A DNA stretch of 64,000 nt. Source: an uncultured Roseicyclus sp. (lineage in GTDB: Bacteria; Pseudomonadota; Alphaproteobacteria; Rhodobacterales; Rhodobacteraceae). Made by a program: the position numbers and the translations under genes. Position 1 is the first letter of the stretch; each line of letters opens with the position of its first letter. Location of the stretch: assembly GCA_964578115.1 (NCBI GenBank), contig CAZOBK010000005.1, positions 19,637-83,636 on the forward strand. Reading direction: 5' to 3'. The notes under the pieces are model-generated. The model did no database searches, had not been told where the DNA came from, and was given only the letters and a program-made list of their open reading frames with translations. Of this stretch, positions 8,545 through 37,152 are shown piece by piece.

Positions 8545-8550
8545 CTGCCG

Positions 8551-10995: not shown

Positions 10996-11020
10996 ACAAG
11001 CCCGGCGGAAGCAAAAACCC

Positions 11021-11452: not shown

Positions 11453-11467
11453 GGCGGCGACCTTGTC

Positions 11468-15742: not shown

Positions 15743-15749
15743 GCTTGCC

Positions 15750-16496: not shown

Positions 16497-19360
16497 GTGC
16501 GCTCCACCTCGGGTTTTCCATAGGCGAGTTTCGACGGCGCGTCCGGCAATCCGCCACGACCGAACGCCTCGAAGCTCGGCTCGGTTTCGCCCGCGCCATC
16601 GGCCCTTTCGATGGACACGCGAAGGTCGAACCATGCTGCCTGCCCGGTGATGGGGTCGGAGTTCGAATAGCGATAGCCGCCCCCGCCATCAGGAAGAAGT
16701 TCTGATATAAGATGGTTGAGCAGGAATCCCTTCTTGGCCTCGGGCGCGTCGTCGTCGAGACCCCAGGCACCCTTGCGCTTGCCGATGGCGTTCCACGTCC
16801 AGACCGTATGCGGGTTCACCCCGTCCATCAGGCGGACCTGGCACTTCACCCGCCCGAGATGAGAGGCGATCCAGACCCAGTCGTCGTCCACGACACCGAT
16901 CCGCGCGCCGAGATCGCGGTGAATGTAGAGCCGGTTCTCCGCCGTGATCTGCCTCAGCCACGCGTTCTGCGAGCCCCAGGAATGGTACATGTGCATCGGG
17001 CGCTGCGTGATGGCGTGCAGGGGGAAGGCCGCGCCATCCACCATCTCGCCCTCGAAGGGCGGATACCAGAAGGGCAGCGGGTCGAAATGGGTCTCGATCC
17101 GGTCACGGGCACGCTCGGGCGGCTGGCGGTCTCCATGGCCCCGCGCGGCCAGCCGGAAGCGCTGCAACGGTTCACAGTAGAGCTGGAAGATCGTGGGCTC
17201 GGGCGACAGCCGGATGCCCTTCTCGATGCCCCAATCGAGATAGCCGCGATTGGCGTGCTTGAAATAGGCGTGTTCCGGCGCGATGGGCTGCACGTGAAAG
17301 GCGCCGTTTTCGATGTAGCGCTGCAACTGATCGGGATTGGGTGCGCCGACGCAGGTCTCGGTCCCATCCGCCCCGCGCCAGCCCGAAAGCGGGCCGATGC
17401 CCGGCTTGCGCTCGTGGTTGACCATGTAATCGGGGTAGCCGCCGGGATAGGCGGGGCTGCCGTCGTCCTTGATGAACCCCGGCAGGCCCAGCCGCGCGCC
17501 AAGGTCGATCAGCACGTCTTGGAACCCGCGCACATCCCGATCGGGCGGGACCACCGGCTGCCGGATCGCGTCGGCGATCATGTCGGGCTCGGATATCGGG
17601 CGATCGAGCAATGAGATGCAGTCCCACCGTTCCAGATAGGTGGTATCGGGCAGGATCAGGTCGGCATAGGGCACCGTCTCGGAATAGTAGGCGTCCGAAT
17701 AGATGATCTTTGGTATCAAATAGTCGCCGCTCTCGTCCCTGGCGGTCAGCGCCTCGAGCGTCCCCGGCACGTTCATCGACGAATTCCACGCCATGTTCGC
17801 CATGTAGAGGAACAGGACATCGATGCCGTAAGGGTCCTTCTTCGCCGCGTTGTTCAGCACCATGTGCATCAGCCCGTGGGCCGACATCGGCGCGTCCCAT
17901 GAAAACCCCTTGTCGAGGCGCGACGGCGTTCCGTCCTCCCCGATCAGAAGGTGCTGCGGCCCGTGCGGGAAGCCCAGATGCGGGCCGCCCAGCGGCATCT
18001 CCGGCTGGATGTCCTGCGGCAGACCGTGAGGCAGGAGGTTAGGCGGCGTCTGTTTGGGATAGGGCGGCTTGTAGCGGAAACCGCCGGGGCAATCGATGGA
18101 GCCGAGCAGGATCTGCAGCACATGGATCATCCGGCAGGTCTGAAACCCGTTGGAATGGGCCGAGATGCCGCGCATCGCGTGCATGGAGACCGGGCGCCCG
18201 ATCATCTTGTCGTGCTTGCGGCCCCACGCATCCGTCCATGGCCGGTCGAGCGTGATCTCTTCCTTGAAGGCCACATGGGCCATCTCGGCGGCGATGCGGC
18301 GGATCTGGTCGGCCGGGATGCCCGTCGCCCCGGCCACGGCCTCCGGCGTGTAGTCATCGCCCAGGTAGCGCTCGGCCATCAGTTCGAAGACCGGACGCGC
18401 GCAGCGCCCGTCGGGCAGGTCCCTTGCACCCGTAAGCGTGACAGACAGGTCGCCCGCCTTCCCGCTCACCAGCCCGCCCGCGTCGCGCGACCAGGCCTGC
18501 GGATTGCCCTCCGCGTCCCGCGCGAAAAGCCCGTCCTCGGCCGTTCCCGGCGCGTCGATCACCAGCCAGGGCGCGTTGGTGTAGCGGATCAGGTAATCGA
18601 GATCGATCTGCTGCGTCCGGAACAACTCATGGATCAGCGCGCCCACGAAAAGGCCATCCGTTCCCGGCTGCACGCCCACCCATTCGTCGGCGACCGCGTT
18701 GTAGCCCGTGCGCACCGGATTGATCGACACGATCTTGGCGCCGCGTTCCTTAAGCTTGCCGATGCCCATCTTGATGGGGTTGGAGGCGTGATCCTCCGCC
18801 ACGCCGAACAGCAGGAAATACTTCGTATGCTCCCAGTCGGGATCGCCGAATTCCCAGAACGCACCGCCGAAGGTGTAAAGCCCGCCGGCGGCCATGTTCA
18901 CCGAACAGAACCCGCCATGGGCTGCGAAATTGGGGGTGCCGAACTTCATCGCCCAGAAGCCCGTCAGGCTCTGGCTCTGGTCGCGCCCGGTGAAGAAGGC
19001 GAGCCGCTTGGGGTCGGTCTTGCGGACCGTGCCCATCCACTCGGTCGCGAGGCTCAGCGCCTCTTCCCAGCTGATTTCCTGAAACTCGCCCGAGCCCCTT
19101 GGCCCAACCCGCTTCATCGGCGCGCGCAACCGCGCGGGGGAGCAGTGCTGCATGATGCCCGACGCGCCCTTGCCGCAGATCACGCCCTTGTTGAGCGGAT
19201 GATCGCGATTGCCATCAATATAGCGCACGTCGGCCCGCCCGCCTGGCACGTCGCGCAGATGCACGTCGATGCCGCAGCGGCAGGCGCACATGTAGCACGT
19301 GGTCTTGGCGACGCGGTCGCCGACCGGCGCGTTCAGATCGATATCGGGCTGCGCTGACAT
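16493..19360 (-). CDS. soeA: Bis-MGD molybdopterin oxidoreductase catalytic subunit without a Tat signal (SoeA-like cytoplasm-facing sulfite dehydrogenase candidate)
   Basis: 955 aa from ATG 19360 (GGAGGAG RBS). FS0 cluster motif C-x2-C-x3-C (CYMCACRC) plus ICGKG. No RRxFLK twin-arginine motif at the N-terminus (MSAQPDIDLNAPVGDR...). Subunit sizes 955/248/320 aa fit SoeABC better than DmsABC. Confidence 0.65.
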   Translation of the reverse strand: MSAQPDIDLNAPVGDRVAKTTCYMCACRCGIDVHLRDVPGGRADVRYIDGNRDHPLNKGVICGKGASGIMQHCSPARLRAPMKRVGPRGSGEFQEISWEEALSLATEWMGTVRKTDPKRLAFFTGRDQSQSLTGFWAMKFGTPNFAAHGGFCSVNMAAGGLYTFGGAFWEFGDPDWEHTKYFLLFGVAEDHASNPIKMGIGKLKERGAKIVSINPVRTGYNAVADEWVGVQPGTDGLFVGALIHELFRTQQIDLDYLIRYTNAPWLVIDAPGTAEDGLFARDAEGNPQAWSRDAGGLVSGKAGDLSVTLTGARDLPDGRCARPVFELMAERYLGDDYTPEAVAGATGIPADQIRRIAAEMAHVAFKEEITLDRPWTDAWGRKHDKMIGRPVSMHAMRGISAHSNGFQTCRMIHVLQILLGSIDCPGGFRYKPPYPKQTPPNLLPHGLPQDIQPEMPLGGPHLGFPHGPQHLLIGEDGTPSRLDKGFSWDAPMSAHGLMHMVLNNAAKKDPYGIDVLFLYMANMAWNSSMNVPGTLEALTARDESGDYLIPKIIYSDAYYSETVPYADLILPDTTYLERWDCISLLDRPISEPDMIADAIRQPVVPPDRDVRGFQDVLIDLGARLGLPGFIKDDGSPAYPGGYPDYMVNHERKPGIGPLSGWRGADGTETCVGAPNPDQLQRYIENGAFHVQPIAPEHAYFKHANRGYLDWGIEKGIRLSPEPTIFQLYCEPLQRFRLAARGHGDRQPPERARDRIETHFDPLPFWYPPFEGEMVDGAAFPLHAITQRPMHMYHSWGSQNAWLRQITAENRLYIHRDLGARIGVVDDDWVWIASHLGRVKCQVRLMDGVNPHTVWTWNAIGKRKGAWGLDDDAPEAKKGFLLNHLISELLPDGGGGYRYSNSDPITGQAAWFDLRVSIERADGAGETEPSFEAFGRGGLPDAPSKLAYGKPEVERT

Positions 19361-19413
19361 ACGGCGCGCCACTCCTCCCCTTGTCGGGCCGCGGGTAAAA
19401 CGCCCCCCTCGTG

Positions 19414-20319
19414 TCACGTTAGCGGCGCTTTTCCGAATGCGCGAGGGGGGATTGTTGCGACCTGAGGCTGCCCGGCCTCGAGATGGGCGCGCAGCGCCTT
19501 GAGCGCCTGCCGATAGGGCCCGCGATGCCGGTTGCGCAGATGGACGCAGGCATAGACCGGCTGCGCGATGACCGGCGCGCCCGACACGCGCCGGGCCAGT
19601 CCCGCGCGCCCCAGTTCCATCGCCGTCTGCAGAAGGACATAGGCGCTGCCCCCGAAGGCGGTGAGCAGCCCGCGCACAACGGCATTCTGCCCGCCAGACA
19701 CCGCGCCCACCGACAAGGCCGGCAGAAGTGCGGCATGCGCGACCGAGAAGGCCGGCGCGTAATTGGCAAGGATGTAGCTGTCCGCGCGCACCTCCGAGAG
19801 GCGCTCGGCCTCGGTCGAGACCATCACATAGGCGATCTCGCCCAGCGTTTCGAAATGCAGGTCGGGCTGTGGTTTCGGCGTGTAGAAGATCGCGAGGTCG
19901 AGCGCGCCGTTCGCGACATCGGAACACATCTGCGCGGAATAATCCGCCTCGACGTAAAGCGCGGTCTGCGGCAAGGCGCCTTGCAGGACCCGGACCCACT
20001 CGGCCACGCTGTCGCCCAGAAGATCGTGCTGGATGCCGATGCGCGCAGTACGTGCGGCACTTCCCGCACCTTGCGCATCCTGCAGCCCCGCGCGCCATGC
20101 CAGCCGCATGGCGCGGGCGTGCGGCTCGAACCTCAGCCCCTCGGTCGTCAGCGCGGTTCCGGCGCGGCTGCGCTCCAGCAGGCGGCAGTTCAGCGCGGTC
20201 TCGAGCGCCCTGAGCCGCCCGGAGACAGTCGACTGCGTGACGCCAAGCCGTTCGGCCGTGCGGTTGAAACTGCGCGTGTCGCAGAGGTCGAGGAAGGTTT
20301 CGATCTGTTCGATGTTCAT
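19414..20319 (-). CDS. LysR-family transcriptional regulator
   Basis: N-terminal HTH IEQIETFLDLCDTRSFNRTAERLGVTQSTVSGRLRALE, followed by an LysR substrate-binding domain. Confidence 0.9.
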   Translation of the reverse strand: MNIEQIETFLDLCDTRSFNRTAERLGVTQSTVSGRLRALETALNCRLLERSRAGTALTTEGLRFEPHARAMRLAWRAGLQDAQGAGSAARTARIGIQHDLLGDSVAEWVRVLQGALPQTALYVEADYSAQMCSDVANGALDLAIFYTPKPQPDLHFETLGEIAYVMVSTEAERLSEVRADSYILANYAPAFSVAHAALLPALSVGAVSGGQNAVVRGLLTAFGGSAYVLLQTAMELGRAGLARRVSGAPVIAQPVYACVHLRNRHRGPYRQALKALRAHLEAGQPQVATIPPRAFGKAPLT

Positions 20320-20330
20320 GGCCGCACCCT

Positions 20331-20347
20331 GATCGGAATTCCCGATC
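20331..20347. promoter_or_regulatory. LysR-type (T-N11-A) box GATCGG-AATTC-CCGATC
   Basis: Perfect 6-bp arms containing ATC-N9-GAT. It lies 12 nt upstream of the LysR start, in the region divergent from the DMGDH-like operon. Confidence 0.55.
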
Positions 20348-20437
20348 TAAACACATTCAACATCGCGATTGAAGCCCGCCCGTACCGTGGGAATAGTCAA
20401 CCTGAAAAAGATCGTCCGTCACCGTGGGAGGACAGTC

Positions 20438-22885
20438 ATGGCCGACATTCCAGGGCATGCACGCGTGGTCATCATCGGTGGCGGGGTGGTCGGCGTCTCG
20501 GCGCTTTATCATCTGGCCAAAGCCGGCTGGACCGACTGCGTTCTTCTTGAAAAGAACGAACTGACGGCGGGCTCGACATGGCATGCGGCCGGCAACGTGC
20601 CGACCTTCTCGACCTCCTGGTCGATCATGAACATGCAGCGCTATTCGACCGAGCTTTATCGCGGACTTGGCGACGCGGTCGATTACGCCATGAACTACCA
20701 TGTGACCGGGTCGATCAGGCTGGGTCATTCGGACGAGCGCATGCAGGAATTCGCACGCGCCCGCGGCATGGGTCTCCACCAGGGGATGAGCCTCGAGGTC
20801 CTCGCGCCGGACGAGATCAAGGACAAGTATCCCTTCATCGAGACCCATGACATCAAGGGCGCGCTTTACGATCCTGCCGATGGCGACATCGACCCCGCGC
20901 AGCTGACGCAGGCGCTGGCCAAGGGCGCGCGCGATCTGGGCGCCATGATCCAGCGCTTCTGCCCCGCGACGGGGGTCAGCCGCGAGAATGGCGAGTGGAT
21001 CGTCCACACGGAAAAGGGCGACATCCGTTGCGAGATCGTGGTGAACGCCGCCGGTTACTACGCCCAGCGCGTCGGCGAGTGGTTCAAGCCCTATGGCGGG
21101 CGCACGGTGCCGATGATGGTGATGAGCCACCAGTACCTGATCTTCGACGAGGTGCCGGCGGTCCGCGACTGGTCGGAAAAGGTCGGCCACAAGCTGCCGC
21201 TGCTGCGCGACGTGGACGTGTCCTACTACCTGAGGCAGGAGAAGAACGGCTTCAACCTCGGCCCGTACGAGCGGACCTGCAAGGCGCACTGGGCCGATCC
21301 CTCCGACCCGATGCCGGAGGATTTCAGCTTTCAGCTCTACCCCGACGCGCTGGACCGCCTGTCCGTGCAGATCGAGGACAGCATGGCCCGCGTGCCGGTG
21401 CTGGCCGAGGCAGGGCTGGCGAAAACGATCAACGGCCCGATCCCCTACACGCCGGATGGCAACCCGCTTCTGGGGCCCATGCCGGGCGTGCCGAACGCCT
21501 TCGAGGCCTGCGTCTTCACCTTCGGCATCGCGCAGGGCGGCGGCGCGGGCAAGGTGCTGGCGGAGTGGATCACCGAAGGCGCGACCGAGTGGGACATGTG
21601 GTCCTGCGATCCGCGCCGCTTCACCGGCTATACCGATCACGAGTACTGCGTTCAGAAGGGGATGGAGGTCTACGCCCATGAATACGGCATGCATTTCCCG
21701 TGGCACCGCTGGCCCGCCGCGCCGGATCGCAGGGTCTCCCTGGTCCAAGATCTTGTAAAGGAACTTGGCGGTCAGATGGGCGCCTATGCCGGCTGGGAAC
21801 GCGCGAACTGGTTCGCGAAACCCGGCGACGACACGTCCGAGGAAGCGACACAGACCTGGAACCGAGCCGGCCCGTGGGAGCCGCGCATCCGCAAGGAATG
21901 CGAGGCGGTGCGCGACGGCGTGGGCGTGCTGGACCTGCCCGGGTTTTCGCGCTTCCACCTGACCGGCGAGGGCGCGGGCGAATGGCTGCTGGGCAAGATC
22001 GCGGGCGGACTGCCCAAACCCGGCCGCATCGCGCTGGCCTATTTCCCGGATCATCGCGGCCGCATCGTCACGGAGATGACCATCGCCTGCAACGGCGAGG
22101 ATGATTTCACGCTGATCACCGCGGCGACCGCGCAGTGGCACGATTACGAATGGCTGGCGCGCGACCTGTCCGAGGGATTGTCGCTTGCCGATCTTTCCGG
22201 CGATCTTTCGACACTGATCGTGACGGGTCCGCAAGCGCGCGATCTCTTCCATCAGGTGGGCACAGAAGCCGACCTTCACTTGCCGTGGCTCACCCACCAG
22301 TCGGCCATGGTGGCCGGGCGGCCCTGCACGCTGGCCCGCGTCAGTTTCGCCGGGGAACTGGGCTGGGAGGTACACGCCGCCAACTCGGAGATCCCCGCGC
22401 TTTACGGGGCGATCCTCGGCGCGGGGGCGAAGCCCTTCGGGATGTTCGCGCTGAACTCACTACGCATCGAAAAGGGCTACCGCGCGTGGAAGGGCGATCT
22501 TTCCACCGATTACAGCCTGTTCGAAGGCGGGCTCGACCGGTTCATCCGGTTCGACAAGCCGCAGGATTTCCCCGGCAAGGCGGCGCTTCTGGCAGAGAAG
22601 CAGCGCGGCGTGACGAAGCGTTTCGTGACGCTGACCGTGGACGCGGGCGCCGCCGACGCGCCCTACATGTCGACGCTCTGGCATGATGGCGCCGTGGTGG
22701 GCGAGACCACCTCGGGCGCATGGGGCTATCGCGTCGGAAGCTCCATCGCACTCGGCATGCTGCGCGCCGATCTGGCGGTGCCGGGAAATGCGCTGGAGGT
22801 CGACATCTTCGGCGACCGCCGCCCCGCCATCGTGCAGCCCGACGGCCCGCTGTGGGACCCCGGCAATGACCGGCTGAGGGCCTGA
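20438..22885 (+). CDS. FAD-dependent oxidoreductase with a C-terminal GcvT/THF-binding domain (dimethylglycine/sarcosine dehydrogenase family), paralogue 1
   Basis: 815 aa. VVIIGGGVVGVSALYHL FAD fold, STWHAAG (the covalent-flavin His context of DMGDH/SARDH), and a C-terminal aminomethyltransferase-like domain. GGGAGG RBS before ATG 20438. Confidence 0.85.
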   Translation: MADIPGHARVVIIGGGVVGVSALYHLAKAGWTDCVLLEKNELTAGSTWHAAGNVPTFSTSWSIMNMQRYSTELYRGLGDAVDYAMNYHVTGSIRLGHSDERMQEFARARGMGLHQGMSLEVLAPDEIKDKYPFIETHDIKGALYDPADGDIDPAQLTQALAKGARDLGAMIQRFCPATGVSRENGEWIVHTEKGDIRCEIVVNAAGYYAQRVGEWFKPYGGRTVPMMVMSHQYLIFDEVPAVRDWSEKVGHKLPLLRDVDVSYYLRQEKNGFNLGPYERTCKAHWADPSDPMPEDFSFQLYPDALDRLSVQIEDSMARVPVLAEAGLAKTINGPIPYTPDGNPLLGPMPGVPNAFEACVFTFGIAQGGGAGKVLAEWITEGATEWDMWSCDPRRFTGYTDHEYCVQKGMEVYAHEYGMHFPWHRWPAAPDRRVSLVQDLVKELGGQMGAYAGWERANWFAKPGDDTSEEATQTWNRAGPWEPRIRKECEAVRDGVGVLDLPGFSRFHLTGEGAGEWLLGKIAGGLPKPGRIALAYFPDHRGRIVTEMTIACNGEDDFTLITAATAQWHDYEWLARDLSEGLSLADLSGDLSTLIVTGPQARDLFHQVGTEADLHLPWLTHQSAMVAGRPCTLARVSFAGELGWEVHAANSEIPALYGAILGAGAKPFGMFALNSLRIEKGYRAWKGDLSTDYSLFEGGLDRFIRFDKPQDFPGKAALLAEKQRGVTKRFVTLTVDAGAADAPYMSTLWHDGAVVGETTSGAWGYRVGSSIALGMLRADLAVPGNALEVDIFGDRRPAIVQPDGPLWDPGNDRLRA

Positions 22886-22889
22886 GCCC

Positions 22890-25334
22890 ATGGCCGACCT
22901 CCCCACTCACGCCCGCGCCGTCATCATCGGTGGCGGCGTCTCGGGCTGTTCGGTCGCCTATCACCTGGCGAAACTCGGCTGGACCGACATCGTCCTTCTT
23001 GAACGCAGACAGCTGACCTGCGGCACCACGTGGCACGCCGCCGGTCTGGTGGGTCAGTTGCGCGGCACCCAGAACATGACGCGGCTGGCGAAGTACTCCG
23101 CCGATCTCTACGTCCGGCTCGAAGAGGAAACCGGCGTCGCCACCGGCATGCGGCAGGTGGGGTCCATCTCGCTTGGCCTGACCGCCGACCGGCGGGAAGA
23201 ATTGCTTCGTCAGGCCACGCTCGCCCGCGCCTTCGATGTGGAGGTGGGCGAGATTTCCACCGCCGAGGTCAAGGCGATGTATCCCCATGTGGAGGTCGGA
23301 GACATCACCTGCGCCGTGCACCTTCCCGGCGACGGGCAGTGCGACCCGGCCAATATCGCCATGGCGCTGGCCAAGGGCGCGCGGATGCGCGGCGCGCAGA
23401 TCTTCGAGGGCGTGAAGGTCACCGCCGTCAAGGACGATGGGAAGCGCGTCACCGGCGTCGACTGGGAGGCGAGCGGCGAGACCGGTCACATCGCGGCCGA
23501 CATCGTCATCAACTGCGGCGGCATGTGGGGCCGTGACCTGGCCGCGGGGTCCGGCGTGAGCCTGCCGCTTCATGCCTGCGAGCATTTCTATCTTGTAACA
23601 GAACCCATCGATGGCCTCGGGCATCTGCCGGTGCTCCGCGTCCCCGACGAATGCGCCTATTACAAGTCCGACGCAGGCAAAATGATGCTGGGCGCCTTCG
23701 AGCCGCGCGCGAAACCCTGGGGCATGTCGGGCATCCCCGAGGATTTCTGCTTCGATGCCCTTCCGGAAGATTTCGAGCATTTCGAGCCGATCCTCGACAT
23801 GGCCACCCGCCGCATGCCGATGTTCGAGACGGCGGGCATCCATACCTTCTTCAACGGCCCCGAAAGCTTCACCCCCGACGACCGCTACTACCTCGGAGAG
23901 GCGCCGGAGCTTGGCGGCTACTGGGTCGCGGCCGGCTACAACTCCATCGGCATCGTCTCCTCGGGGGGCGCGGGCATGGCGCTGGCGCAATGGATCGTGG
24001 ACGGCGAGGCGCCCTTCGACCTGTGGGAGGTCGACATCCGCCGCGCGCAACCCTTCCAGCGAAACCTGCGTTACCTGAAGGAACGCGTGACGGAAACCCT
24101 TGGCCTTCTCTACGCCGACCACTGGCCTTACCGGCAGGTCGAGACCGCGCGCGGCGTGCGCCGCAGCCCGGTCCATGAGCACCTGAAGCAGGCCGGCGCT
24201 GTCTTCGGCGAGGTCGCGGGGTGGGAGCGTGCGAACTGGTTCGCGGATCCGGGGCAGGCGCGCGAATACCGCTACGGCTGGCACCGGCAGAACTGGTTCG
24301 AGAACTCGCGGGCCGAGCATATGGCCGTGCGGCAGGGCGTGGGCCTTTTCGACATGACCTCCTTCGGCAAGATCCGGGTGGAAGGGCGCGACGCCGCCGC
24401 CTTCCTCAACCATGTCTGCGCCAACGAGGTCGGCGTGCCCGCCGGCCGCGTCGTTTACACCCAGATGCTCAACGCGAAAGGCGGGATCGAAAGCGACCTG
24501 ACCGTCACGCGGTTGAGCGAGACCGCCTTCCTGCTCGTCGTGCCCGGAGCGACGCTGCGCCGCGATCAGGCTTGGCTTCGTGCGCATGTCGGGAACCGTT
24601 TCGTGACGATCACCGACATGACCGCAGCCGAGGCCGTATTCTGCGTGATGGGGCCGAAGGCGCGAGATCTTCTACAGGATGCCAGCCCCGATGACCTGAC
24701 GAACGCCGCCTTCCCCTTCGGCACGGCACGCGAGATCGAGATCGGCATGGGGCTGGCCCGCGCCCACCGCATCTCCTACGTGGGCGAACTCGGTTGGGAG
24801 CTTTACGTCTCGACCGATCAGGCGGCGCATGTGTTCGAGGCTCTGACCGAGGCCGGAACGGATCACGGGCTCAAGCTCTGCGGTCTCCATGCGCTCGACA
24901 GTTGCCGTATCGAGAAGGCGTTCCGCCATTTCGGCCATGACATCACCGACGAGGATCACGTGCTGGAGGCAGGCCTCGGTTTCGCCGTGCGCACGCAGAA
25001 GCCCGATTTCATCGGCCGCGACGCGGTGCTGCGCAAGCGGGAGGCGGGGCTCGCCCGCCGCATGCTCCAGTTCCGGCTGACCGACCCCGAGCCGATGCTC
25101 TTTCACAACGAAGCCGTGGTTCGCGACGGAAAGATCGTCTCGATCGTGACCTCGGGAAATTACGGCCACGCGCTCGGCGGTGCGATCGGGATGGGCTACG
25201 TGCCCTGCTCCGGCGAAAGCGCCGAGGACGTGCTGGGCTCCACCTACGAGATCGAAGTGGCCGGCGTGCGCCACGCGGCGGAGGCCAGCCTGGCGCCGCT
25301 TTACGATCCGAAATCGGAAAGGGTGCGGATGTGA
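22890..25334 (+). CDS. FAD-dependent oxidoreductase with a C-terminal GcvT/THF-binding domain (dimethylglycine/sarcosine dehydrogenase family), paralogue 2
   Basis: 814 aa. AVIIGGGVSGCSVAYHL, TTWHAAG, and a GcvT-like C-terminal half. Starts 4 nt after the stop of paralogue 1. Confidence 0.85.
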   Translation: MADLPTHARAVIIGGGVSGCSVAYHLAKLGWTDIVLLERRQLTCGTTWHAAGLVGQLRGTQNMTRLAKYSADLYVRLEEETGVATGMRQVGSISLGLTADRREELLRQATLARAFDVEVGEISTAEVKAMYPHVEVGDITCAVHLPGDGQCDPANIAMALAKGARMRGAQIFEGVKVTAVKDDGKRVTGVDWEASGETGHIAADIVINCGGMWGRDLAAGSGVSLPLHACEHFYLVTEPIDGLGHLPVLRVPDECAYYKSDAGKMMLGAFEPRAKPWGMSGIPEDFCFDALPEDFEHFEPILDMATRRMPMFETAGIHTFFNGPESFTPDDRYYLGEAPELGGYWVAAGYNSIGIVSSGGAGMALAQWIVDGEAPFDLWEVDIRRAQPFQRNLRYLKERVTETLGLLYADHWPYRQVETARGVRRSPVHEHLKQAGAVFGEVAGWERANWFADPGQAREYRYGWHRQNWFENSRAEHMAVRQGVGLFDMTSFGKIRVEGRDAAAFLNHVCANEVGVPAGRVVYTQMLNAKGGIESDLTVTRLSETAFLLVVPGATLRRDQAWLRAHVGNRFVTITDMTAAEAVFCVMGPKARDLLQDASPDDLTNAAFPFGTAREIEIGMGLARAHRISYVGELGWELYVSTDQAAHVFEALTEAGTDHGLKLCGLHALDSCRIEKAFRHFGHDITDEDHVLEAGLGFAVRTQKPDFIGRDAVLRKREAGLARRMLQFRLTDPEPMLFHNEAVVRDGKIVSIVTSGNYGHALGGAIGMGYVPCSGESAEDVLGSTYEIEVAGVRHAAEASLAPLYDPKSERVRM

Positions 25335-26875
25335 CGACCGAGGTCGAAATCAAGAAAAGCCGCCGCGGCGGCGGGCGGGCGGCCCGTGTCGCCCTGCGCG
25401 CGGCCCCGCTGGCCGAGGACAAGCGCCCCGTGCGCCCCGGTCTGCAGGGCGGGCAATACGCGCCCCTGACCGAGGCCGGTGTCGCGCGCATCCATTGCGC
25501 CGCGATGGACGCGCTGGAGGTGGTCGGCCTGTCGCAAGCCCCTGAAAGCGGGGTCGAGATCATGACCGGGGCGGGCGCGATCCTCGGCGATGACGGGCGG
25601 CTGCGGTTTCCCCGAACGCTGGTCGAGGACATGGTCGACAAGGCGGCGAAGGCCTTTCCCCTCTACGGGCGCGATACGCGCCATCATCTCGATCTGTCCG
25701 GCACCCGTGTCCATTATGGCACTGCCGGCGCGGCGGTGAATGTCGTGGATATCGAAACGCAGAGCTATCGCCCCTCCACCGCGCGGGACCTCTACGACGC
25801 CGCGCGGCTGGCGCAGAACCTCGACAACATCCATTTCTTCCAGCGCACCATGGTCTGCTGCGAGATCCCGGATCTGGTGGAGATGGACATCAACACGCTG
25901 TATGCCTGTCTCGCCGGCACCACGAAACACGTGGGCACGTCCTTCTCCGATCCCGCCTCCGTCGATCCGGGAATGGATCTGATCCACATGGTCGCCGGCG
26001 GCGAGGAGGCCTGGCGCGCGATGCCCTTCGTGTCGCTGTCCAACTGCTTCGTCGTGCCTCCGATGAAATTCGCGACCGAAAGCTGCCTGACGATGGAGGC
26101 CTGCATCCGCGCTGGCATGCCGATCCTGCTACTGTCGGCCGGACAGGCCGGGGCCACCGCCCCCGCCCCGATCGCGGCGGCCATCGTGCAGGCGGTCGCC
26201 GAATGCCTCGCGGGCGTCGTCTATGTCAACGCCATGGCGCCCGGCCATCCGGCGGTCTTCGGAACATGGCCCTTCGTGTCCGACCTGCGCACAGGCGCCA
26301 TGTCCGGCGGGTCGGCGGAACAGGCACTCCTGTCGGCGGGCTGCGCGCAGATGCACCGGTTCTACGGCATCCCGGGCGGTGCGGCGGGCGGCATGACCGA
26401 CAGCAAGCTGCCGGACATGCAGGCCGGTTGGGAACAGGGCATCATCAACGTGCTGAGCGGCTTGTCCGGCCTCAACATGGTCTACGAATCCGTTGGCATG
26501 TATGCCTCGCTCATGGGCTTCTCGCCCGAGGGGATGGTTCTGGGCAACGACCTGATCGGACAGGCGCAACGCTGCGTGCGCGGTATCGACGTGACCGAGG
26601 ATTCCGTGTCGCTCGACGTGATGAAGGCCGTCTGCCTCGATGGCGGGCCGGGGCATTACCTCGGCTCCGACCAGACGCTCGCGCTGATGCAGACGGAGTA
26701 TCTTTACCCCGAGATCGGCAACCGCATGACGCCGAAGGATTGGGTTGAGGCGGACAAGCCGGACCTGATCGCGGCGGCGCGGCGGCGGATGGACAGCATC
26801 CTGCAACAGGCACCCTGCCAAGTACCGGTCGACGTGGACGCCGCTATCCGCGCAAGGTTCCCCATCAGATTCTGA
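25331..26875 (+). CDS. Non-pyrrolysine MttB-superfamily (trimethylamine methyltransferase family) protein, candidate quaternary-amine methyltransferase
   Basis: 514 aa. The N-terminal RRGGGRAARVALRAAP...RPGLQGGQYAPLTEAGVARIHCAAMDALE pattern is typical of proteobacterial MttB homologues. No in-frame TAG. The GTG start overlaps the upstream TGA (GTGA). Confidence 0.8.
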   Translation: MTTEVEIKKSRRGGGRAARVALRAAPLAEDKRPVRPGLQGGQYAPLTEAGVARIHCAAMDALEVVGLSQAPESGVEIMTGAGAILGDDGRLRFPRTLVEDMVDKAAKAFPLYGRDTRHHLDLSGTRVHYGTAGAAVNVVDIETQSYRPSTARDLYDAARLAQNLDNIHFFQRTMVCCEIPDLVEMDINTLYACLAGTTKHVGTSFSDPASVDPGMDLIHMVAGGEEAWRAMPFVSLSNCFVVPPMKFATESCLTMEACIRAGMPILLLSAGQAGATAPAPIAAAIVQAVAECLAGVVYVNAMAPGHPAVFGTWPFVSDLRTGAMSGGSAEQALLSAGCAQMHRFYGIPGGAAGGMTDSKLPDMQAGWEQGIINVLSGLSGLNMVYESVGMYASLMGFSPEGMVLGNDLIGQAQRCVRGIDVTEDSVSLDVMKAVCLDGGPGHYLGSDQTLALMQTEYLYPEIGNRMTPKDWVEADKPDLIAAARRRMDSILQQAPCQVPVDVDAAIRARFPIRF

Positions 26876-26893
26876 AAAGCGAAAGGACAGCCC

Positions 26894-27847
26894 ATGAAGG
26901 TCGCATTCATCGGCTTGGGCAACGTGGGCGGCAAGCTCGCCGGAAGCCTGCTGCGCAATGGCGCGGATCTTGCCATCCATGACCTCGACGCAAATCTTGT
27001 AACGGATTTCGTCGCGCGCGGCGCCACAGCGGGCGCCGACCCCGCCGCGATCATGCAGGCCGCCGATGTGGTCATCACCTGCCTGCCCTCGCCGGCCGCC
27101 TCGGACGCCGTCGTCACCGCGATGCTGCCCCATGTCGGCCCCGGCAAGACCTGGATGGAGATGTCGACGACTGATGCCGGGGAGGTCATGCGCCTCGGCG
27201 CCATGGTGGAGGCGGCCGGCGGCCGGGCGGTGGAATGCCCCGTCTCGGGCGGCTGCCACCGCGCCGATACCGGCAATATCTCGATCTTCGCAGGCGGCTC
27301 GCGCGAGGCGGTGGACCATGTCCTGCCGCTTCTGAAGCATCTCGGGCGGCGCATCCTGCACACCGGGCCGCTGGGCAGCGCGTCTAAGCTCAAGGTCATG
27401 ACCAACTACCTCGCCACGGTGAACCTCGTTTCGCTGTGCGAGGCGATGACCGTGATGAAGGCGGCAGGGATCGACCTCGCCACGACCTACGAGGCGATCC
27501 GCATCAGCTCGGGCACCTCCTTCGTGCACGAGACCGAGAGCCAGTTGATCCTGTCGGGCGCCCGGGACGTCAACTTCACCATGGACCTCGTCCAGAAGGA
27601 TATCGGTCTCTTTCAGAAGCTTGCCGATGACCATGCCGTGCCGCTGGAGATGTCGCCGCTGCTGATCGACATCATCGCCGACGGGCAGCGCCGTTATGGA
27701 GACCGCGCGCAATCCGATCGCATCATCGAACGGCTGGAGGAGGCGACGGGGCTTCAGATCCGGGCTGACGGTTTCCCCGAATTTCTTGTAGACTTGGAAC
27801 CTGAGGAAGAAGGCTACGAGGTTTTCAGGGGGTCGGATGAACGCTGA
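26894..27847 (+). CDS. NAD(P)-dependent 3-hydroxyisobutyrate / beta-hydroxyacid dehydrogenase-family oxidoreductase
   Basis: Rossmann motif MKVAFIGLGNVGG. 6PGDH-NAD-binding/HIBADH architecture with a ~30-aa acidic C-terminal tail. Confidence 0.8.
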   Translation: MKVAFIGLGNVGGKLAGSLLRNGADLAIHDLDANLVTDFVARGATAGADPAAIMQAADVVITCLPSPAASDAVVTAMLPHVGPGKTWMEMSTTDAGEVMRLGAMVEAAGGRAVECPVSGGCHRADTGNISIFAGGSREAVDHVLPLLKHLGRRILHTGPLGSASKLKVMTNYLATVNLVSLCEAMTVMKAAGIDLATTYEAIRISSGTSFVHETESQLILSGARDVNFTMDLVQKDIGLFQKLADDHAVPLEMSPLLIDIIADGQRRYGDRAQSDRIIERLEEATGLQIRADGFPEFLVDLEPEEEGYEVFRGSDER

Positions 27848-29264
27848 CAGGTTCTATATCGACGGCGAATGGGTGGGCCCGAGCGGTGCGGCGACCATGC
27901 CGATCATGGACCCGTCCATGGACGAACAGGTCGGCACGGTCGCGCTGGGGCGTCTGCAGGATGTGGACCACGCGGTGCAGGCGGCCCGCGCGGCCTTCGA
28001 TGGCTTCGGGCGGTGGCCCAAGGCGGATCGGCTCGCGCTGCTGCGGCGCATCCGGCAGGGGACAAAGGACCGCCTCGAAGACCTCGCGCAGGCCATGAGC
28101 CTCGAGATGGGCGCACCGATCGGCATGGCGCGCGAGGTACAGGCCGAGGCGGGCATCGGCCATGCCGACGGCTTCATCGAAGCGCTGGAGGCTCAGGAAG
28201 AGCGCTGGACGCTTTCCAATGGCGACACGCTGCTGCGCGAACCGATCGGACCCGCCGGAATGATCACACCGTGGAACTGGCCGATCAACCAGATCGCGCT
28301 CAAGGTCCTGCCCGCGCTCGCCACCGGCTGTCCCGCGATCCTCAAACCCTCCGAGTACACCCCGCTCTCGGCGCAGATCTATGCGCAGATCCTGCATGAC
28401 GCGGGCGTACCGCCGGGGGCCTTCGCGCTGATCCACGGCACCGGGGCGGAAGTGGGCGACGCGCTGGCCCGCCACCCCGAGCTTGCTATGGTGTCCTTCA
28501 CCGGATCGACCCGCGCCGGCATCTCGGTGACCAAGGCAGCAGCGGAATCCGTCAAGCGTGTGACGCTGGAACTGGGCGGCAAGTCCCCCAACCTGATCTT
28601 CGCCGATTGCGGCGCGGCGCTGGAGGACCGCGTGCGCGCCTCCGTGGCCGAGTGTTTCCTCAACACCGGACAGTCCTGCGACGCGCCCACGCGAATGATC
28701 GTCGAGGCGGCTTGCTACGATCGCGTCGTCGAAATCGCGCGCGATGCGGCCGAGACGACGAAGGTCGGCGATCCGAGGGCCGAGGGCGACCATATCGGCC
28801 CACTCTTCGACGAGATCCAGTGGCACCGCGTGCAGACCATGATCGCCACCGGCATCGAGGAAGGCGCGCGGCTTGTCGCCGGGGGGCCGGGCAAGCCGCC
28901 GGGCATGAACCGCGGCTGGTACGTGCGCCCCACCGTCTTTGCCGATGTCACCAACGACATGGCCATCGCCCGGAAGGAGATCTTCGGCCCGGTCCTCAGC
29001 ATCCTGAGGGCCGAGGATGAGGCCGAGGCCATCCGCATCGCCAATGACACCGAGTACGGGCTGGCCGCCTTCATCCAGACCGGCGACACGGAACGCGCCG
29101 AGCGGGTCGCGGCCCGCCTGCGCGCGGGCGCCGTGCATGTCAACGGTGGCGGCATCGGCTGGGGCACGCCCTTCGGCGGCTACAAGGCCTCGGGCAACGG
29201 GCGCGAGGGCGGCGCGATGGGGCTGGAAGACTACCAGGAGATCAAGAGCCTGCATTTCGGTTGA
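27837..29264 (+). CDS. NAD(P)+ aldehyde dehydrogenase family protein
   Basis: 475 aa. LELGGKSP and NTGQSCDAPTR (catalytic Glu and Cys contexts). Overlaps the preceding gene by 11 nt. Confidence 0.88.
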   Translation: MNADRFYIDGEWVGPSGAATMPIMDPSMDEQVGTVALGRLQDVDHAVQAARAAFDGFGRWPKADRLALLRRIRQGTKDRLEDLAQAMSLEMGAPIGMAREVQAEAGIGHADGFIEALEAQEERWTLSNGDTLLREPIGPAGMITPWNWPINQIALKVLPALATGCPAILKPSEYTPLSAQIYAQILHDAGVPPGAFALIHGTGAEVGDALARHPELAMVSFTGSTRAGISVTKAAAESVKRVTLELGGKSPNLIFADCGAALEDRVRASVAECFLNTGQSCDAPTRMIVEAACYDRVVEIARDAAETTKVGDPRAEGDHIGPLFDEIQWHRVQTMIATGIEEGARLVAGGPGKPPGMNRGWYVRPTVFADVTNDMAIARKEIFGPVLSILRAEDEAEAIRIANDTEYGLAAFIQTGDTERAERVAARLRAGAVHVNGGGIGWGTPFGGYKASGNGREGGAMGLEDYQEIKSLHFG

Positions 29265-29270: not shown

Positions 29271-30692
29271 TCAGCCCCGTGGCTGGTTCAGCACCAGACG
29301 CGAGGGCCGCTCATGCGCCTGATGCGCGGCGACAAGCGCGCTTGCCCGGTCCGCCACCACGCCCTCGGGCGCCACGACGCGGCGGCTGGACAGGTCCACG
29401 TGCAGCAGCAGCGTCTCCATGGTCGCGGCAGGTGTCTCGCCGCCGGTCCAGAACCTGTGCAGCAGATGCAGCTTGCGCCCATCCCCACCCAGCGCCTGCG
29501 TGGTCACGGTGATGCTGTCGCCGATATCGATCTCGGCGAGGTAGCGGATGTGGTTCTCGGCCGTGAAATAGCTGAGCCCGCCCGCGATGTAATCCGCGTC
29601 CGCCCCGATCATCTCCATCAAGCGGTCCGAGGCCCGCGCGCCGACCTCCAGATACGGCGCCTCGTTCATGTGCCCGTTATAGTCGACGAAGGAGGTAGGC
29701 ACCTGCATCTCCAGGGTGACGGGCAAGCCGTCCGGTCCGGCGTCGGGCACACTCAGGGTTTTCTCATGGGCCGCGATCACGCCGCCCGCGCCGCTGCCGG
29801 TGCGCTTGAGCGCGCGCATCATCGCCACGAGGTTCTCGTCGCGCAGACGCTCCAGCGCGCGGATGCTCAGATGGCCCGATTGCGCGTCCGACTGCCCCGC
29901 GATCAGGTCGACAAGCGCGTCGTCGAACTCCGGCACGTCCATGAGCTTGGTCCAGGGCCATGTCAGGCAGGGACCGAACTGTTCGAGGAAATGGCGCATG
30001 CCCGCCTCGCCGCCCGCGATGCGGTAAGTCTCGAAAAGGCCCATCTGCGCCCAGCGCAGGCCGAAGCCCATGCGGATCGCCTCGTCGATCTCGGCGGTCG
30101 TCGCCACGCCGTCCTTCACCAGCCACAGCGCCTCGCGCCAGACAGCCTCGAGGAAACGGTCGGCGATATGGGCGTCGATCTCCTTGCGGACGGTCAGGGG
30201 GAACATGCCGATCCCGCGCAGGATGTCGGCGGCGCGCGCCGTCTCGCCCGCGTCGCCCACCAGCTCCACCAGCGGGAGCAGGTAGACCGGGTTGAACGGA
30301 TGCGCCACGATCACGCGGGCGCCGGTCCGGTTCAGCTCTGACGGTTTGAAACCCGAGGTGGAGGAGCCGATCACCGCATCGGCCGGGGCGGTGGCCGCGA
30401 TCTCGTCGTATACGGCATGCTTGATTTCAAGCCGCTCGGGCACGCTTTCCTGTATCCAGTCGGCGCCGGAGACAGCCTCGGCGATGGTCGTGTGCAAGCT
30501 CAGCGCGCCCTCGGCCGGCAAGGGCCGTTCGTAGAGCCCCGGCAGAGCGCGCCGCGCATTGGCCAGCACTTCGCGGATCTTGCGCTCCGCGTCCGGGTCG
30601 GGGTCGCAGACCGCCACGTCCCAGCCGTTGAGCAGGAACCGCGCGGCCCAGCCGCCGCCGATGACACCGCCGCCGATGATCGCTGCCTTCAT
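29271..30692 (-). CDS. lcdH: L-carnitine dehydrogenase with a fused C-terminal hotdog thioesterase domain
   Basis: 473 aa. 3-hydroxyacyl-CoA-dehydrogenase-type N-terminus MKAAIIGGGVIGGGWAARFL, plus a C-terminal ~150-aa thioesterase-like domain (VDYNGHMNEAPYL...). AAGGAG RBS. ATGA overlap with the upstream gene. Confidence 0.8.
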   Translation of the reverse strand: MKAAIIGGGVIGGGWAARFLLNGWDVAVCDPDPDAERKIREVLANARRALPGLYERPLPAEGALSLHTTIAEAVSGADWIQESVPERLEIKHAVYDEIAATAPADAVIGSSTSGFKPSELNRTGARVIVAHPFNPVYLLPLVELVGDAGETARAADILRGIGMFPLTVRKEIDAHIADRFLEAVWREALWLVKDGVATTAEIDEAIRMGFGLRWAQMGLFETYRIAGGEAGMRHFLEQFGPCLTWPWTKLMDVPEFDDALVDLIAGQSDAQSGHLSIRALERLRDENLVAMMRALKRTGSGAGGVIAAHEKTLSVPDAGPDGLPVTLEMQVPTSFVDYNGHMNEAPYLEVGARASDRLMEMIGADADYIAGGLSYFTAENHIRYLAEIDIGDSITVTTQALGGDGRKLHLLHRFWTGGETPAATMETLLLHVDLSSRRVVAPEGVVADRASALVAAHQAHERPSRLVLNQPRG

Positions 30693-31219
30693 GGTGATAT
30701 GCTCCTTTCGAGCCGCGCAAGGTCGTAGCCGTTGAAATCCAGAACCTCGCGCGCGGCGATCAGGCGATCCCGAGGGATCACAGGGTCGCGGTTCAGGATC
30801 CAGCCCGCGCGCCCGTCGGGCTGGCCCACGACGGCGGTACGATAGCCCTCGTCGATCCAGAGCACCCAGTAGGGCGCTGCGACGGGAACGCCGTCGAGCC
30901 GCACCGACAGCCGCCCGGGCCCGACCACCCGCGCGGTGCCGGCGATCTCGTCGATGACGTCTCCGTTGGCGTCGAGGCAGGTGTTCCGAACGAGGATTTC
31001 GCCGCCCTCGCCTTGCGCGTAGTCGACGACCGCGCCCGCGCAGCGCGCCTGAAACGGGTTGGGATAGCGCGCGACCTCGTACCAGCGGCCGAGGTAGCGG
31101 GCGGGGTCGAAATTGGCACTCGACGCGATGGTGACGGAGCGGTCGCGATAGCTGGGCGCGATGGCGCCGCACGCCGCAAGAAGGCCCGCGAGGCCGAGCG
31201 CAAGGAGCGTTCTGATCAT
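30689..31219 (-). CDS. blc: Bacterial lipocalin (Blc-like) lipoprotein
   Basis: 176 aa. Lipobox LLAAC after a signal peptide. Lipocalin motif RYLGRWYEVARYPNPFQ. ATGA overlaps at both ends. Confidence 0.85.
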   Translation of the reverse strand: MIRTLLALGLAGLLAACGAIAPSYRDRSVTIASSANFDPARYLGRWYEVARYPNPFQARCAGAVVDYAQGEGGEILVRNTCLDANGDVIDEIAGTARVVGPGRLSVRLDGVPVAAPYWVLWIDEGYRTAVVGQPDGRAGWILNRDPVIPRDRLIAAREVLDFNGYDLARLERSISP

Positions 31220-31980
31220 GGCGCGAGTGTCTCCGTATGTCCGTCGATGCATAGCGTCTGGCCCGAGATCTTCGCGCCTGCGGGCGAAGAAAGGTAATGC
31301 ACCATGTTGGCGACGTCCTCGGCATCGACCCAGCTGCGCAGCGACACACCCTTGACGTAGAGCGCGCGGATCTCTTCCTCCGGGCGGCCCTGCGCCTGGG
31401 CCTCCATCGCCACGACGCGGTCCATGCGCGGCCCCTGCACGGCGCCCGGCGCAAGCGCGTTCACACGCACGCCTGCCGGTCCCAGTTCCATCGCAAGCGT
31501 CTTCATCAGCCCGATGATCGCCCATTTCGAGGCGGAATAGGGGCTGCGGAACGGGTAGCCCGCGATCCCGGCGGTCGACGAGGTCAGCGTGATCAGCCCA
31601 TGCCCCTGAGCCCGCATCAAACGCGCCGCCCAGCGGCAGGTCAGGAACGCGCCATTCAGGTTGACCGCGACGCAGTCCTGCCACGCGCCGTAATCCAGCG
31701 TCTCGATCAACCCGGCGGGCCCGCCCGTGCCGGCATTGGCGCAGACCACATCGACCCGGTCCCAACTGGCCTCCACCAGCGAAAGGAACGCGTCAACATC
31801 GGCCTCGCGCGTGACATCCGCGACCCGCGCGATGGCGGCGGGATGGGCGCTCGCGAAATCCGCGACCGCATCCACGTCCACGTCGCAGATCGCGACCTCG
31901 GCGCCTTCGATGAGGAAGCGTTCGGCGATGGCGCGCCCGATGCCAGAGGCGCCGGCGGTGACGAGGACGCGCTTTGTCAT
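31216..31980 (-). CDS. Short-chain dehydrogenase/reductase (SDR) family oxidoreductase
   Basis: 254 aa. TAGASGIGRAIA cofactor motif and YSASK catalytic motif. ATGA overlaps at both ends. Confidence 0.85.
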   Translation of the reverse strand: MTKRVLVTAGASGIGRAIAERFLIEGAEVAICDVDVDAVADFASAHPAAIARVADVTREADVDAFLSLVEASWDRVDVVCANAGTGGPAGLIETLDYGAWQDCVAVNLNGAFLTCRWAARLMRAQGHGLITLTSSTAGIAGYPFRSPYSASKWAIIGLMKTLAMELGPAGVRVNALAPGAVQGPRMDRVVAMEAQAQGRPEEEIRALYVKGVSLRSWVDAEDVANMVHYLSSPAGAKISGQTLCIDGHTETLAP

Positions 31981-32891
31981 GCGGCGGGCGCGCGTTTGGT
32001 CAGGCCGAGCTTTTCGCGCACCTCCTGCGGCCCCATCACCCGCGCGCCCATGCCCTCGACCACGCCCACGGCGCGCTCCACCAGCTGCGCATTGGTCGCC
32101 AGCACGCCCTTCTCGAGCCACAGGTTGTCCTCCAGCCCCACGCGCACGTGCCCGCCTGCCAGCACGGCGGCGGCGGCATAGGCCATCTGGTGCCGCCCCA
32201 GTGAGAAGGCCGAGAATGTCCAGTCATCCGGCACGTTGTTGACCATCGCCATGAAGGTGTTGAGGTCGTCCGGCGCGCCCCACGGCACGCCCATGCAAAG
32301 CTGCACAAGCGCGGGTGCCTCCAGCACGCCCTCCTTCACCAGTTCCTTGGCGAACCAGAGGTGCCCGGTATCAAAGGCCTCGATCTCGGGCTTCACGCCC
32401 AGATGCGTCATCATCCGACCCATCGCACGCAGCATGCCCGGCGTGTTGGTCATGACGTAATCGGCCTCGGCGAAGTTCATCGTGCCGCAGTCGAGCGTGC
32501 AGATCTCGGGCAGGCACCGGGCGATATGTTCGACCCGTTCGGCCGCGCCGATCATGTCGGTGCCCGCCTCGTTCAGCGGCAGGGGCCGTTCGGTCGGGCC
32601 GAAGGTGATGTCGCCGCCCATGCCCGCGGTCAGGTTGAGGACCACGTCCACCTCCGCGTCGCGGATCCGGTCGGTGACCTCGCGGTAGAAGTCGAGCCGG
32701 CGGGACGGCGCGCCCGTCTCGGGATCGCGCACGTGGCAATGGACGATGGCGGCCCCTGCCTTGGCCGCGTCGATGGCGCTGTCGGCGATCTGCTGCGGGC
32801 TGCGCGGCACATGGGGGCTGCGGTCCTGCGTGCCGCCCGAGCCCGTCACCGCGCAGGTAATGAAGACCTCGCGGCTCATTTGAAGTGGCAT
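31977..32891 (-). CDS. BKACE-family (DUF849, 3-keto-5-aminohexanoate cleavage enzyme-like) beta-keto acid cleavage enzyme, candidate dehydrocarnitine cleavage enzyme
   Basis: 304 aa. FITCAVTGSGGTQDRSPHVP and IVHCHVRDPETG motifs of the BKACE TIM-barrel family. GGGAGA RBS before ATG 32891. Confidence 0.8.
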   Translation of the reverse strand: MPLQMSREVFITCAVTGSGGTQDRSPHVPRSPQQIADSAIDAAKAGAAIVHCHVRDPETGAPSRRLDFYREVTDRIRDAEVDVVLNLTAGMGGDITFGPTERPLPLNEAGTDMIGAAERVEHIARCLPEICTLDCGTMNFAEADYVMTNTPGMLRAMGRMMTHLGVKPEIEAFDTGHLWFAKELVKEGVLEAPALVQLCMGVPWGAPDDLNTFMAMVNNVPDDWTFSAFSLGRHQMAYAAAAVLAGGHVRVGLEDNLWLEKGVLATNAQLVERAVGVVEGMGARVMGPQEVREKLGLTKRAPAA

Positions 32892-32913
32892 GTCGTCTCC
32901 CTTTCCTTCGATC

Positions 32914-32954
32914 TTTCGTACGAAAAAACGCACGTGTGAATTTTCGTACGAAAA
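32914..32954. promoter_or_regulatory. Two copies of the palindrome TTTCGTACGAAA (candidate tandem operator) upstream of the BKACE operon
   Basis: TTTCGTACGAAA at 32914-32925 and TTTTCGTACGAAAA at 32941-32954, with centres 28 bp apart, in the AT-rich 67-bp gap between the caiD stop and the BKACE start. Confidence 0.6.
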
Positions 32955-32958
32955 TTCG

Positions 32959-35780: not shown

Positions 35781-35781
35781 C

Positions 35782-36942: not shown

Positions 36943-37152
36943 GGCATCCTCCCTGTTGGTCAAAGTGCTATGCCCGACCCGTTGCCCTTATCATGCAGCA
37001 ATGCACGCTGATCATGCAGAAATCGCAGATTTTGATCGCGGCGCAAGCCCGTGGTGATCACGTCGCGCAAAGAACCGGCAAAGATCGTTTTCCGGTTCCA
37101 TCCCGTGCTCCTGCGGATTTCGCAATCGCGTGTTTGCAGCTATGTCGAAGGG

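Follow-up and report, generated by a model that had tools for sequence, protein, structure and literature searches.

Every characterised enzyme of the MttB superfamily methylates Co(I) (PMC13080624, PMC12155760, PMC8604678). Described members that do not use pyrrolysine (Pyl) include MtgB of Desulfitobacterium hafniense, whose gene sits with mtgC and mtgA, and MtcB (carnitine), MtyB (γ-butyrobetaine), MtpB (proline betaine) and MthB (phosphocholine) of Eubacterium limosum, each of which acts on one quaternary amine together with a corrinoid protein and a methyl-tetrahydrofolate (methyl-THF) methyltransferase. Mausz et al. (PNAS 2025, PMC12478193) described for Ruegeria pomeroyi, an aerobic roseobacter, a system in which a single corrinoid protein, MtgC (SPO2160), works in glycine betaine demethylation as well as in a split methionine synthase, as do the bidirectional methyl-THF methyltransferase MtgD (SPO1863), RamA (SPO2041) and a DUF1638 protein (SPO2162). 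The MttB-family genes SPO2108 and SPO2134 are located away from the genes for these four proteins. Glycine betaine use requires MtgC and MtgD, and a genome may have as many as seven pfam06253 paralogues, probably for other methylated compounds (PMC12478193). In Phaeobacter inhibens, mtgB1 is genetically required and mtgB2-4 are listed as ‘related uncharacterized methyltransferases’; mtgBCD was found in 36 of 40 Rhodobacterales genomes (preprint 10.64898/2025.12.19.695462). Here we describe an MttB-superfamily gene in a 64,000-nt stretch of DNA (contig CAZOBK010000005.1, hereafter the window) from an uncultured Roseicyclus sp., and compare it with these systems.

We consider it likely that this gene encodes the MT1 module, the methyltransferase that binds the substrate, in a cobalamin-dependent system of the MtgBCD(E) type, and that it belongs to a clade other than MtgB. 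The evidence consists of family membership, operon conservation, the absence of local partners, the presence of distal partners in relatives and the divergence of the binding residues. The MttB protein would bind a trimethylammonium compound in its TIM barrel and transfer the first methyl group onto Co(I) of MtgC, which would be encoded elsewhere and be common to other MttB paralogues and the split methionine synthase. From MtgC the methyl group would pass to THF by the action of MtgD, and RamA and DUF1638 would hold the cobalt reduced. Two flavoenzymes of the same operon, DH1 and DH2, which resemble dimethylglycine dehydrogenase (DMGDH) and sarcosine dehydrogenase (SARDH), would then oxidatively remove the second and third N-methyl groups, each loading a one-carbon unit on THF via its own GcvT domain. 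An enzyme of the 3-hydroxyisobutyrate dehydrogenase family (HIBDH-like) and an aldehyde dehydrogenase (ALDH) would process the carbon skeleton, and a divergent LysR-family regulator would control the whole unit. We infer the corrinoid dependence of the window protein, the order of these steps and the nature of the substrate from the comparisons given below.

The open reading frame (ORF) extends from a GTG at 25331 to a TGA that ends at 26875 and encodes 514 aa. It matches PF06253 (MTTB) over its full length (E = 2e-100, 336.6 bits, residues 12-507, profile positions 1-489 of 500). In sequence searches the D. hafniense MtgB structures 2QNE and 9YCE matched over ∼460 residues with E = 2e-51, the Pyl-containing MttB structure 7XCL matched residues 47-503 with E = 6e-51, and PDB 4YYC matched with E = 3e-35. 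We take these matches to solved structures as decisive for the fold, a TIM barrel predicted from homology. A preliminary description of this DNA had assigned the protein to the non-pyrrolysine members of the family, and this assignment is confirmed: there is no in-frame TAG within the ORF, Met355 aligns with the pyrrolysine position of 7XCL, and the score against TIGR02369, the equivalog model for Pyl-MttB, is 324, below the cutoff of 525. Without UAG and with this sub-cutoff score, the protein does not qualify as the trimethylamine methyltransferase MttB sensu stricto, with which it shares the Pfam family. The D-S-K motif beside the Pyl-equivalent position is kept in the clade of the window protein, and the barrel is conserved at full length. 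The G + C content at third codon positions (0.86) is typical for real genes in the window. The first 25 residues are conserved among orthologues that align from residue 1, and the GTG start is therefore supported.

The sequence of the source genome searched for corrinoid partners was that of the 64-kb window. Pfam analysis of ∼60 gene candidates across the whole window gave no match to PF02310/PF02607 (B12-binding), PF00809 (Pterin_bind), PF01208 (URO-D), DUF1638 or RamA-like families. When the six-frame ORFs of at least 60 aa in the window were searched by phmmer, no match was obtained with the four modules of Escherichia coli MetH, nor with MtgC, DUF1638, MetF, MtgD or RamA from a Paracoccus methylovorus plasmid. 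The signature DxHxxG...SxL...GG was found in no frame of the window. The three tests thus agree with the preliminary description, according to which no corrinoid protein, methyl-THF:corrinoid methyltransferase or reductive activase is encoded in the 64 kb.

The published hubs of Alphaproteobacteria are distal and shared, and an orphan MttB homologue is therefore the normal state in this group. Two explanations had been offered for the missing partner, and the one that places it elsewhere in the genome is supported both by the published model and by the relatives of the window gene. Five complete replicons carry an orthologue with 72-73% identity: the Sinorhizobium meliloti Ak57 chromosome, Shinella PSBB067, and Sinorhizobium K101, C101 and M103 (plasmid collection). 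All five also carry MtgC, at a distance of 245-331 kb and with 83-85% identity to Paracoccus MtgC. The MtgC region of S. meliloti contains bmt, an MttB-family gene, MtgC, DUF1638, MetF, MtgD and a RamA-type ASKHA protein, and adjoins a glycine betaine/proline ABC transporter. The S. meliloti orthologue of the window gene sits apart from this region, together with LysR, DH1 and DH2. The full set of MtgD and RamA/DUF1638 is present in the clusters of both S. meliloti and P. methylovorus. The suggestion that the orphan state reflects an undescribed wiring is not supported, as distal, shared MtgC, MtgD and RamA are already published for aerobic Alphaproteobacteria.

The window gene resembles the MtgBCD(E) systems of R. 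pomeroyi and P. inhibens in several respects. All are found in aerobic Alphaproteobacteria and have a non-pyrrolysine pfam06253 protein whose gene has no MtgC, MtgD or RamA gene beside it. The systems also share the presence of several paralogues in a genome and a subsequent role for demethylases of the DMGDH type, which in the window is predicted. The window protein differs in being 25-28% identical to the MtgC-adjacent MtgB of S. meliloti and Paracoccus and in lacking the Tyr, Arg and His residues of the latter. Most likely it corresponds to the ‘related uncharacterized methyltransferases’ of the P. inhibens preprint.

The cluster of P. methylovorus that supplied the search probes lies on plasmid p1 (7093-15305 of the locus), where MtgB, MtgC, DUF1638, MetF, MtgD and RamA are compactly arranged, with a GlxA-family regulator and an IS630 transposase as neighbours. 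Since this cluster is plasmid-borne, the whole cobalamin-dependent glycine betaine demethylation system can travel on a plasmid.

The binding residues set the window protein apart from MtgB. In D. hafniense MtgB, residues Y97, R312, H348 and F356 bind glycine betaine, as established by mutagenesis and a ligand-bound crystal structure; the substitution H348E abolishes activity, and R312 is reported to be conserved in MtcB, MtyB, MtpB and MthB as the contact for the acidic group of the substrate (PMC13080624). The corresponding residues of the window protein are G133, G350, E386 and L394, and they are invariant in 120 of 120 orthologues. Thus the anaerobic E. limosum enzymes, compared here by their published description, keep the equivalent of R312 whereas the window clade has Gly. 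The MtgC-adjacent MtgB proteins of S. meliloti and P. methylovorus served as proxies for MtgB in place of SPO2108, SPO2134 and P. inhibens mtgB1. Both keep Y97, R312 and H348 (three of the four positions) and are 42-45% identical to D. hafniense MtgB. In contrast, the window protein and its S. meliloti orthologue share 25-28% identity with the MtgC-adjacent MtgB proteins and with D. hafniense MtgB, the value for the window protein and D. hafniense MtgB being 28%. Because all four glycine-betaine-binding residues are replaced, the window protein is, by this residue test, not MtgB. For the same reason, and given its separate clade, its substrate is probably not glycine betaine; another quaternary amine is the probable substrate. 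It also differs from D. hafniense MtgB, with which it shares the superfamily, in having no local partners.

The nearest paralogues, with 45-48% identity, are closer to the window protein than is D. hafniense MtgB. They are encoded on an R. pomeroyi megaplasmid and a Roseovarius indicus plasmid and have Gly, Ser, Gln or Glu, and Leu at the four positions. Their operons consist of a LysR gene, the MttB gene, in some cases a class-III aminotransferase gene, two DMGDH-like genes and in some cases a gene for an Xsc-like thiamine pyrophosphate enzyme, which scores 401 bits against a cutoff of 620. Since these plasmid operons repeat the MttB gene and two DMGDH-like genes with other skeleton enzymes, the combination of an MttB paralogue with two DMGDH-like enzymes appears to be a reusable cassette for the removal of three N-methyl groups, in the plasmid operons from other quaternary amines, to which skeleton-specific enzymes are joined. 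Our literature search found no characterisation of this MttB clade.

The search for corrinoid partners near orthologues covered 163 loci, of which 80 are from genomes, 80 from metagenome contigs and 3 from contigs of the nearest relative. Relatives of the window protein were found in at least 587 species-representative genomes; the best 80 of these (69-84% identity) belong mainly to Paracoccaceae, the others being a few Rhizobiales and other Alphaproteobacteria. Neighbours were counted only over loci with enough flanking sequence. The operon of a LysR gene, two DMGDH-like genes, MttB, an optional ALDH gene and a HIBDH-like gene is conserved in ∼80% of the 80 genomes. The pairing with DMGDH-like genes, for which the preliminary description had proposed a check in relatives, is conserved: DH2 immediately precedes the MttB orthologue in 53 of 68 loci, and DH1 is present in 50 of 60. 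The divergent LysR gene lies upstream in 54 of 60 evaluable loci, the HIBDH-like gene <3 kb downstream in 58 of 69, and an ALDH gene downstream in 33 of 69. In 14 of 76 loci the orthologue has no DH genes beside it. Yoonia and Loktanella, for example, keep only LysR, MttB and the HIBDH-like gene among unrelated genes. The nearest relatives, JGI contigs whose MttB proteins are 91% (Ga0612015_0005, 4.17 Mb) and 96% identical (Ga0076930_100059, 184 kb), have the same arrangement as the window. Across the hundreds of species in the clade, identity is 69-96%.

The start of MttB overlaps the stop of DH2 in the window, as can be read directly in the sequence (GTGA, Table 1) and as the preliminary description had reported. 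The co-translation deduced from it was an over-reading. An overlap of 4 nt occurs in only 8 of ∼61 loci, the others having gaps of 15-180 bp or an inserted gene; the overlap therefore marks a single operon and says nothing special on co-translation.

Both DH proteins have the four-domain architecture of mammalian DMGDH/SARDH and Arthrobacter dimethylglycine oxidase and are homologous to them over the full length. They differ from these enzymes in sharing an operon with an MttB paralogue. Mammalian DMGDH matches DH1 with E = 3e-162 and DH2 with E = 6e-137, and the two DH proteins are ∼32% identical to each other. The DH1 ORF opens at 20369, but its homology begins at the start given in Table 1. 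The two dehydrogenases had been taken to flank MttB; in fact both DMGDH-like genes are upstream, and the downstream genes are the HIBDH-like gene and the ALDH gene. The HIBDH-like gene reaches the cutoff of no NCBIfam equivalog, and the best NCBIfam matches of the ALDH (HpaE and BADH) are all below cutoff. A 1287-aa ORF at 16493-20356 is an artefact that runs through LysR in antisense.

Table 1. Location of the MttB gene, the surrounding genes of the window and two paralogous operons on plasmids
Feature	Location	Strand	Evidence or remark
MttB-superfamily methyltransferase gene, non-pyrrolysine	25331-26875	+	PF06253; matches to PDB 2QNE, 9YCE and 7XCL
LysR-family regulator, divergent	19465-20319	-	Pfam HTH_1, LysR_substrate; 90% identical to LysR of the nearest relative
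DH1, DMGDH/SARDH-like flavoenzyme with THF-binding GcvT domain	20438-22885	+	Pfam DAO, FAO_M, GCV_T, GCV_T_C
DH2, second DMGDH/SARDH-like flavoenzyme	22890-25334	+	Pfam DAO, FAO_M, GCV_T, GCV_T_C
GTGA overlap of MttB start and DH2 stop	25331-25334	+	Read directly; TGA of DH2 at 25332-25334
HIBDH-family (β-hydroxyacid dehydrogenase) gene	26894-27847	+	Pfam NAD_binding_2, NAD_binding_11
ALDH, last operon gene	27837-29264	+	Pfam Aldedh, E = 4e-146
Complete carnitine/γ-butyrobetaine to glycine betaine cluster	29271-36963	-	Convergent with the MttB operon; outside the conserved operon
DmsC-type anchor	14780-15742	-	
4Fe-4S subunit	15750-16496	-	
DMSO-reductase-family molybdoenzyme	16499-19360	-	
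Paralogous operon, R. pomeroyi megaplasmid (locus L088)	7953-18249		
Paralogous operon, Roseovarius indicus plasmid (locus L089)	7914-12914		

The question of the substrate bears on an alternative that we regard as possible but rather unlikely, namely that the window protein is an aerobic-type glycine betaine methyltransferase, an isoform of MtgB. The distal MtgC wiring would be the same and only the substrate would differ; the operon would convert glycine betaine via dimethylglycine and sarcosine to glycine, fed by the adjacent carnitine cluster. The two full-length DMGDH/SARDH homologues in the operon are consistent with this pathway, and R. pomeroyi proteins of the DMGDH type (‘aminomethyl transferase family’) are induced on glycine betaine. 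The BADH-like ALDH, and a BetA-like GMC oxidoreductase found in 10 loci, could make glycine betaine from choline. The carnitine cluster contains a fusion of carnitine 3-dehydrogenase and thioesterase (NF005716, 704 bits against a cutoff of 592), BKACE, a lipocalin, a short-chain dehydrogenase resembling 3-hydroxybutyrate dehydrogenase, an enoyl-CoA hydratase, an ADP-forming acyl-CoA synthetase-like protein and an acyl-CoA dehydrogenase, and it adjoins the operon in the window, in the closest relatives and in locus L007. However, carnitine adjacency is absent from most loci. All four glycine betaine contacts are replaced, and the change of H348 to Glu is the one that kills D. hafniense MtgB. 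In addition, S. meliloti and its relatives already own a canonical MtgB beside MtgC (LZK74_26795 in S. meliloti) with the Tyr, Arg and His residues, and the most conserved neighbour of the orthologues, even in the minimal modules such as that of Yoonia, is the HIBDH-like gene, an enzyme for which glycine has no need. We also considered a functional link to the carnitine cluster as a conserved feature and rejected it, since the two are adjacent only in the closest relatives and in loci L007 and L008.

The second explanation offered in the preliminary description, that the methyl group passes to THF through the neighbouring GcvT domains, found no support and appears very improbable to us. In this corrinoid-independent scheme MttB, in complex with the co-operonic DMGDH-like enzyme, would give the methyl group directly to GcvT-bound THF. 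It would be consistent with the absence of a corrinoid protein near any of the 163 loci and with the tight linkage to genes for GcvT-domain enzymes, which in the window extends to a stop/start overlap. A precedent for direct methyl transfer from an onium compound to THF by a member of the GcvT family is DmdA, which acts on dimethylsulfoniopropionate in this way. However, all characterised members of the MttB family use Co(I) as methyl acceptor, the DH genes are not always beside the orthologue and the overlap is not conserved, as described above. Moreover, MtgD, a corrinoid-dependent enzyme, has been recruited as a neighbour in 4 of 160 loci (L060, L098, L109 and L150), at a distance of 1-2.5 kb from the orthologue. 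With 68% identity to S. meliloti MtgD and a score of 406 for NF005719 (cutoff, 259), it is a genuine MtgD. An MtgC cluster was found on every complete replicon checked. If it were true, corrinoid-free transfer to GcvT-bound THF would be new chemistry for the MttB superfamily.

Still less probable is that the protein is no catabolic demethylase at all, for instance because it runs the reaction in reverse or has lost methyltransferase activity for another role in the operon: the known substrate-binding residues are lost, but the strong purifying conservation of the clade, with its full-length barrel and D-S-K motif, and the catabolic operon context under LysR control speak for a demethylase.

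Several observations weigh against the assignment of the window protein to an MT1 module of a non-MtgB clade. No gene for MtgC, RamA or DUF1638 was found within 10 kb of the orthologue in any of the 163 loci; in phmmer searches of the loci neither the B12 domain of MetH nor Paracoccus MtgC gave a match. The link to the corrinoid protein comes from co-occurrence and family precedent and not from adjacency. With respect to the substrate, the case against glycine betaine relies on residues defined in an enzyme of only 28% identity, and the substrate may be bound in another way. Elsewhere in the barrel there are Arg, His and aromatic residues that do not vary within the clade, with W313, F315, Y385, R172, R414 and R417 as candidates for a cation cage or for contact with E386. 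A neighbouring carnitine cluster that yields glycine betaine, together with the DMGDH-like partners, would fit glycine betaine as the substrate.

With the MT1 assignment, a B12-type methyltransferase without a nearby B12 carrier is already explained by the shared-hub MtgBCDE model, and no new mechanism is opened. New here is a delimited and widespread clade, with its at least 587 species-level genome matches, fixed operon partners and a distinct binding pocket. The accessory genes hint at a hydroxylated or homoserine-type skeleton. Our guesses would be homoserine betaine, with the HIBDH-like enzyme, the ALDH and a cystathionine γ-lyase as partners, choline, or a carnitine-type hydroxy acid. 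If the substrate were identified, one more quaternary amine would join those whose turnover by Alphaproteobacteria of soil, saline and marine habitats needs cobalamin, and it could be judged whether an MttB paralogue with two DMGDH-like enzymes forms a general cassette for three-step demethylation.

Additional genes are found in the operon at some loci. A gene matching the cystathionine γ-lyase equivalog (NF005758, 508 bits against a cutoff of 440) was present in 29 of the 80 genome loci, directly 3′ of the HIBDH-like gene and on the same strand (for example, L053, 12543-13679). A gene of the phosphoenolpyruvate mutase/isocitrate lyase family lies between DH2 and MttB in ∼12-16 loci, and in some other loci a gene resembling zinc alcohol dehydrogenase/quinone oxidoreductase lies between DH1 and DH2. 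In 14 of 160 loci (L006, L011, L013, L043, L094, L098-L100, L104, L133, L136, L140, L150 and L165) the operon is interrupted by a homocysteine S-methyltransferase gene (PF02574), in most cases between DH1 and DH2. It could encode a cobalamin-independent, BHMT-like alternative first demethylase or provide a link to methionine salvage. As an orthologue of MtgE it was rejected. Its product shares only ∼27% identity with S. meliloti Bmt/MtgE and does not reach the MmuM cutoff, and for these reasons we did not count it towards the corrinoid wiring. In the Rhodobacter/Tabrizicola group, hut, purF, radA and cvpA are found as neighbours; they were likewise not accepted as pathway genes and were judged to be a conserved chromosomal neighbourhood.

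Sequence nearly identical to positions 24000-28000 of the window (0.87-0.95 of the sampled 31-mers) was present in several soil metagenome runs, with weaker matches in runs from hypersaline lakes and sediment. All matching runs were DNA metagenomes; no RNA run with this sequence was found. Two other groups of genes in the window lie outside the operon. The molybdoenzyme cluster on the minus strand (Table 1) keeps its synteny with the MttB operon in the closest relative. At 48340-60786 there is a galactoside/galactonate island that includes a GH42 β-galactosidase, an SMP-30 lactonase, a KDPGal aldolase and a 2-keto-3-deoxygalactonokinase, as well as a GH4 enzyme, an ABC sugar transporter and an IclR regulator.

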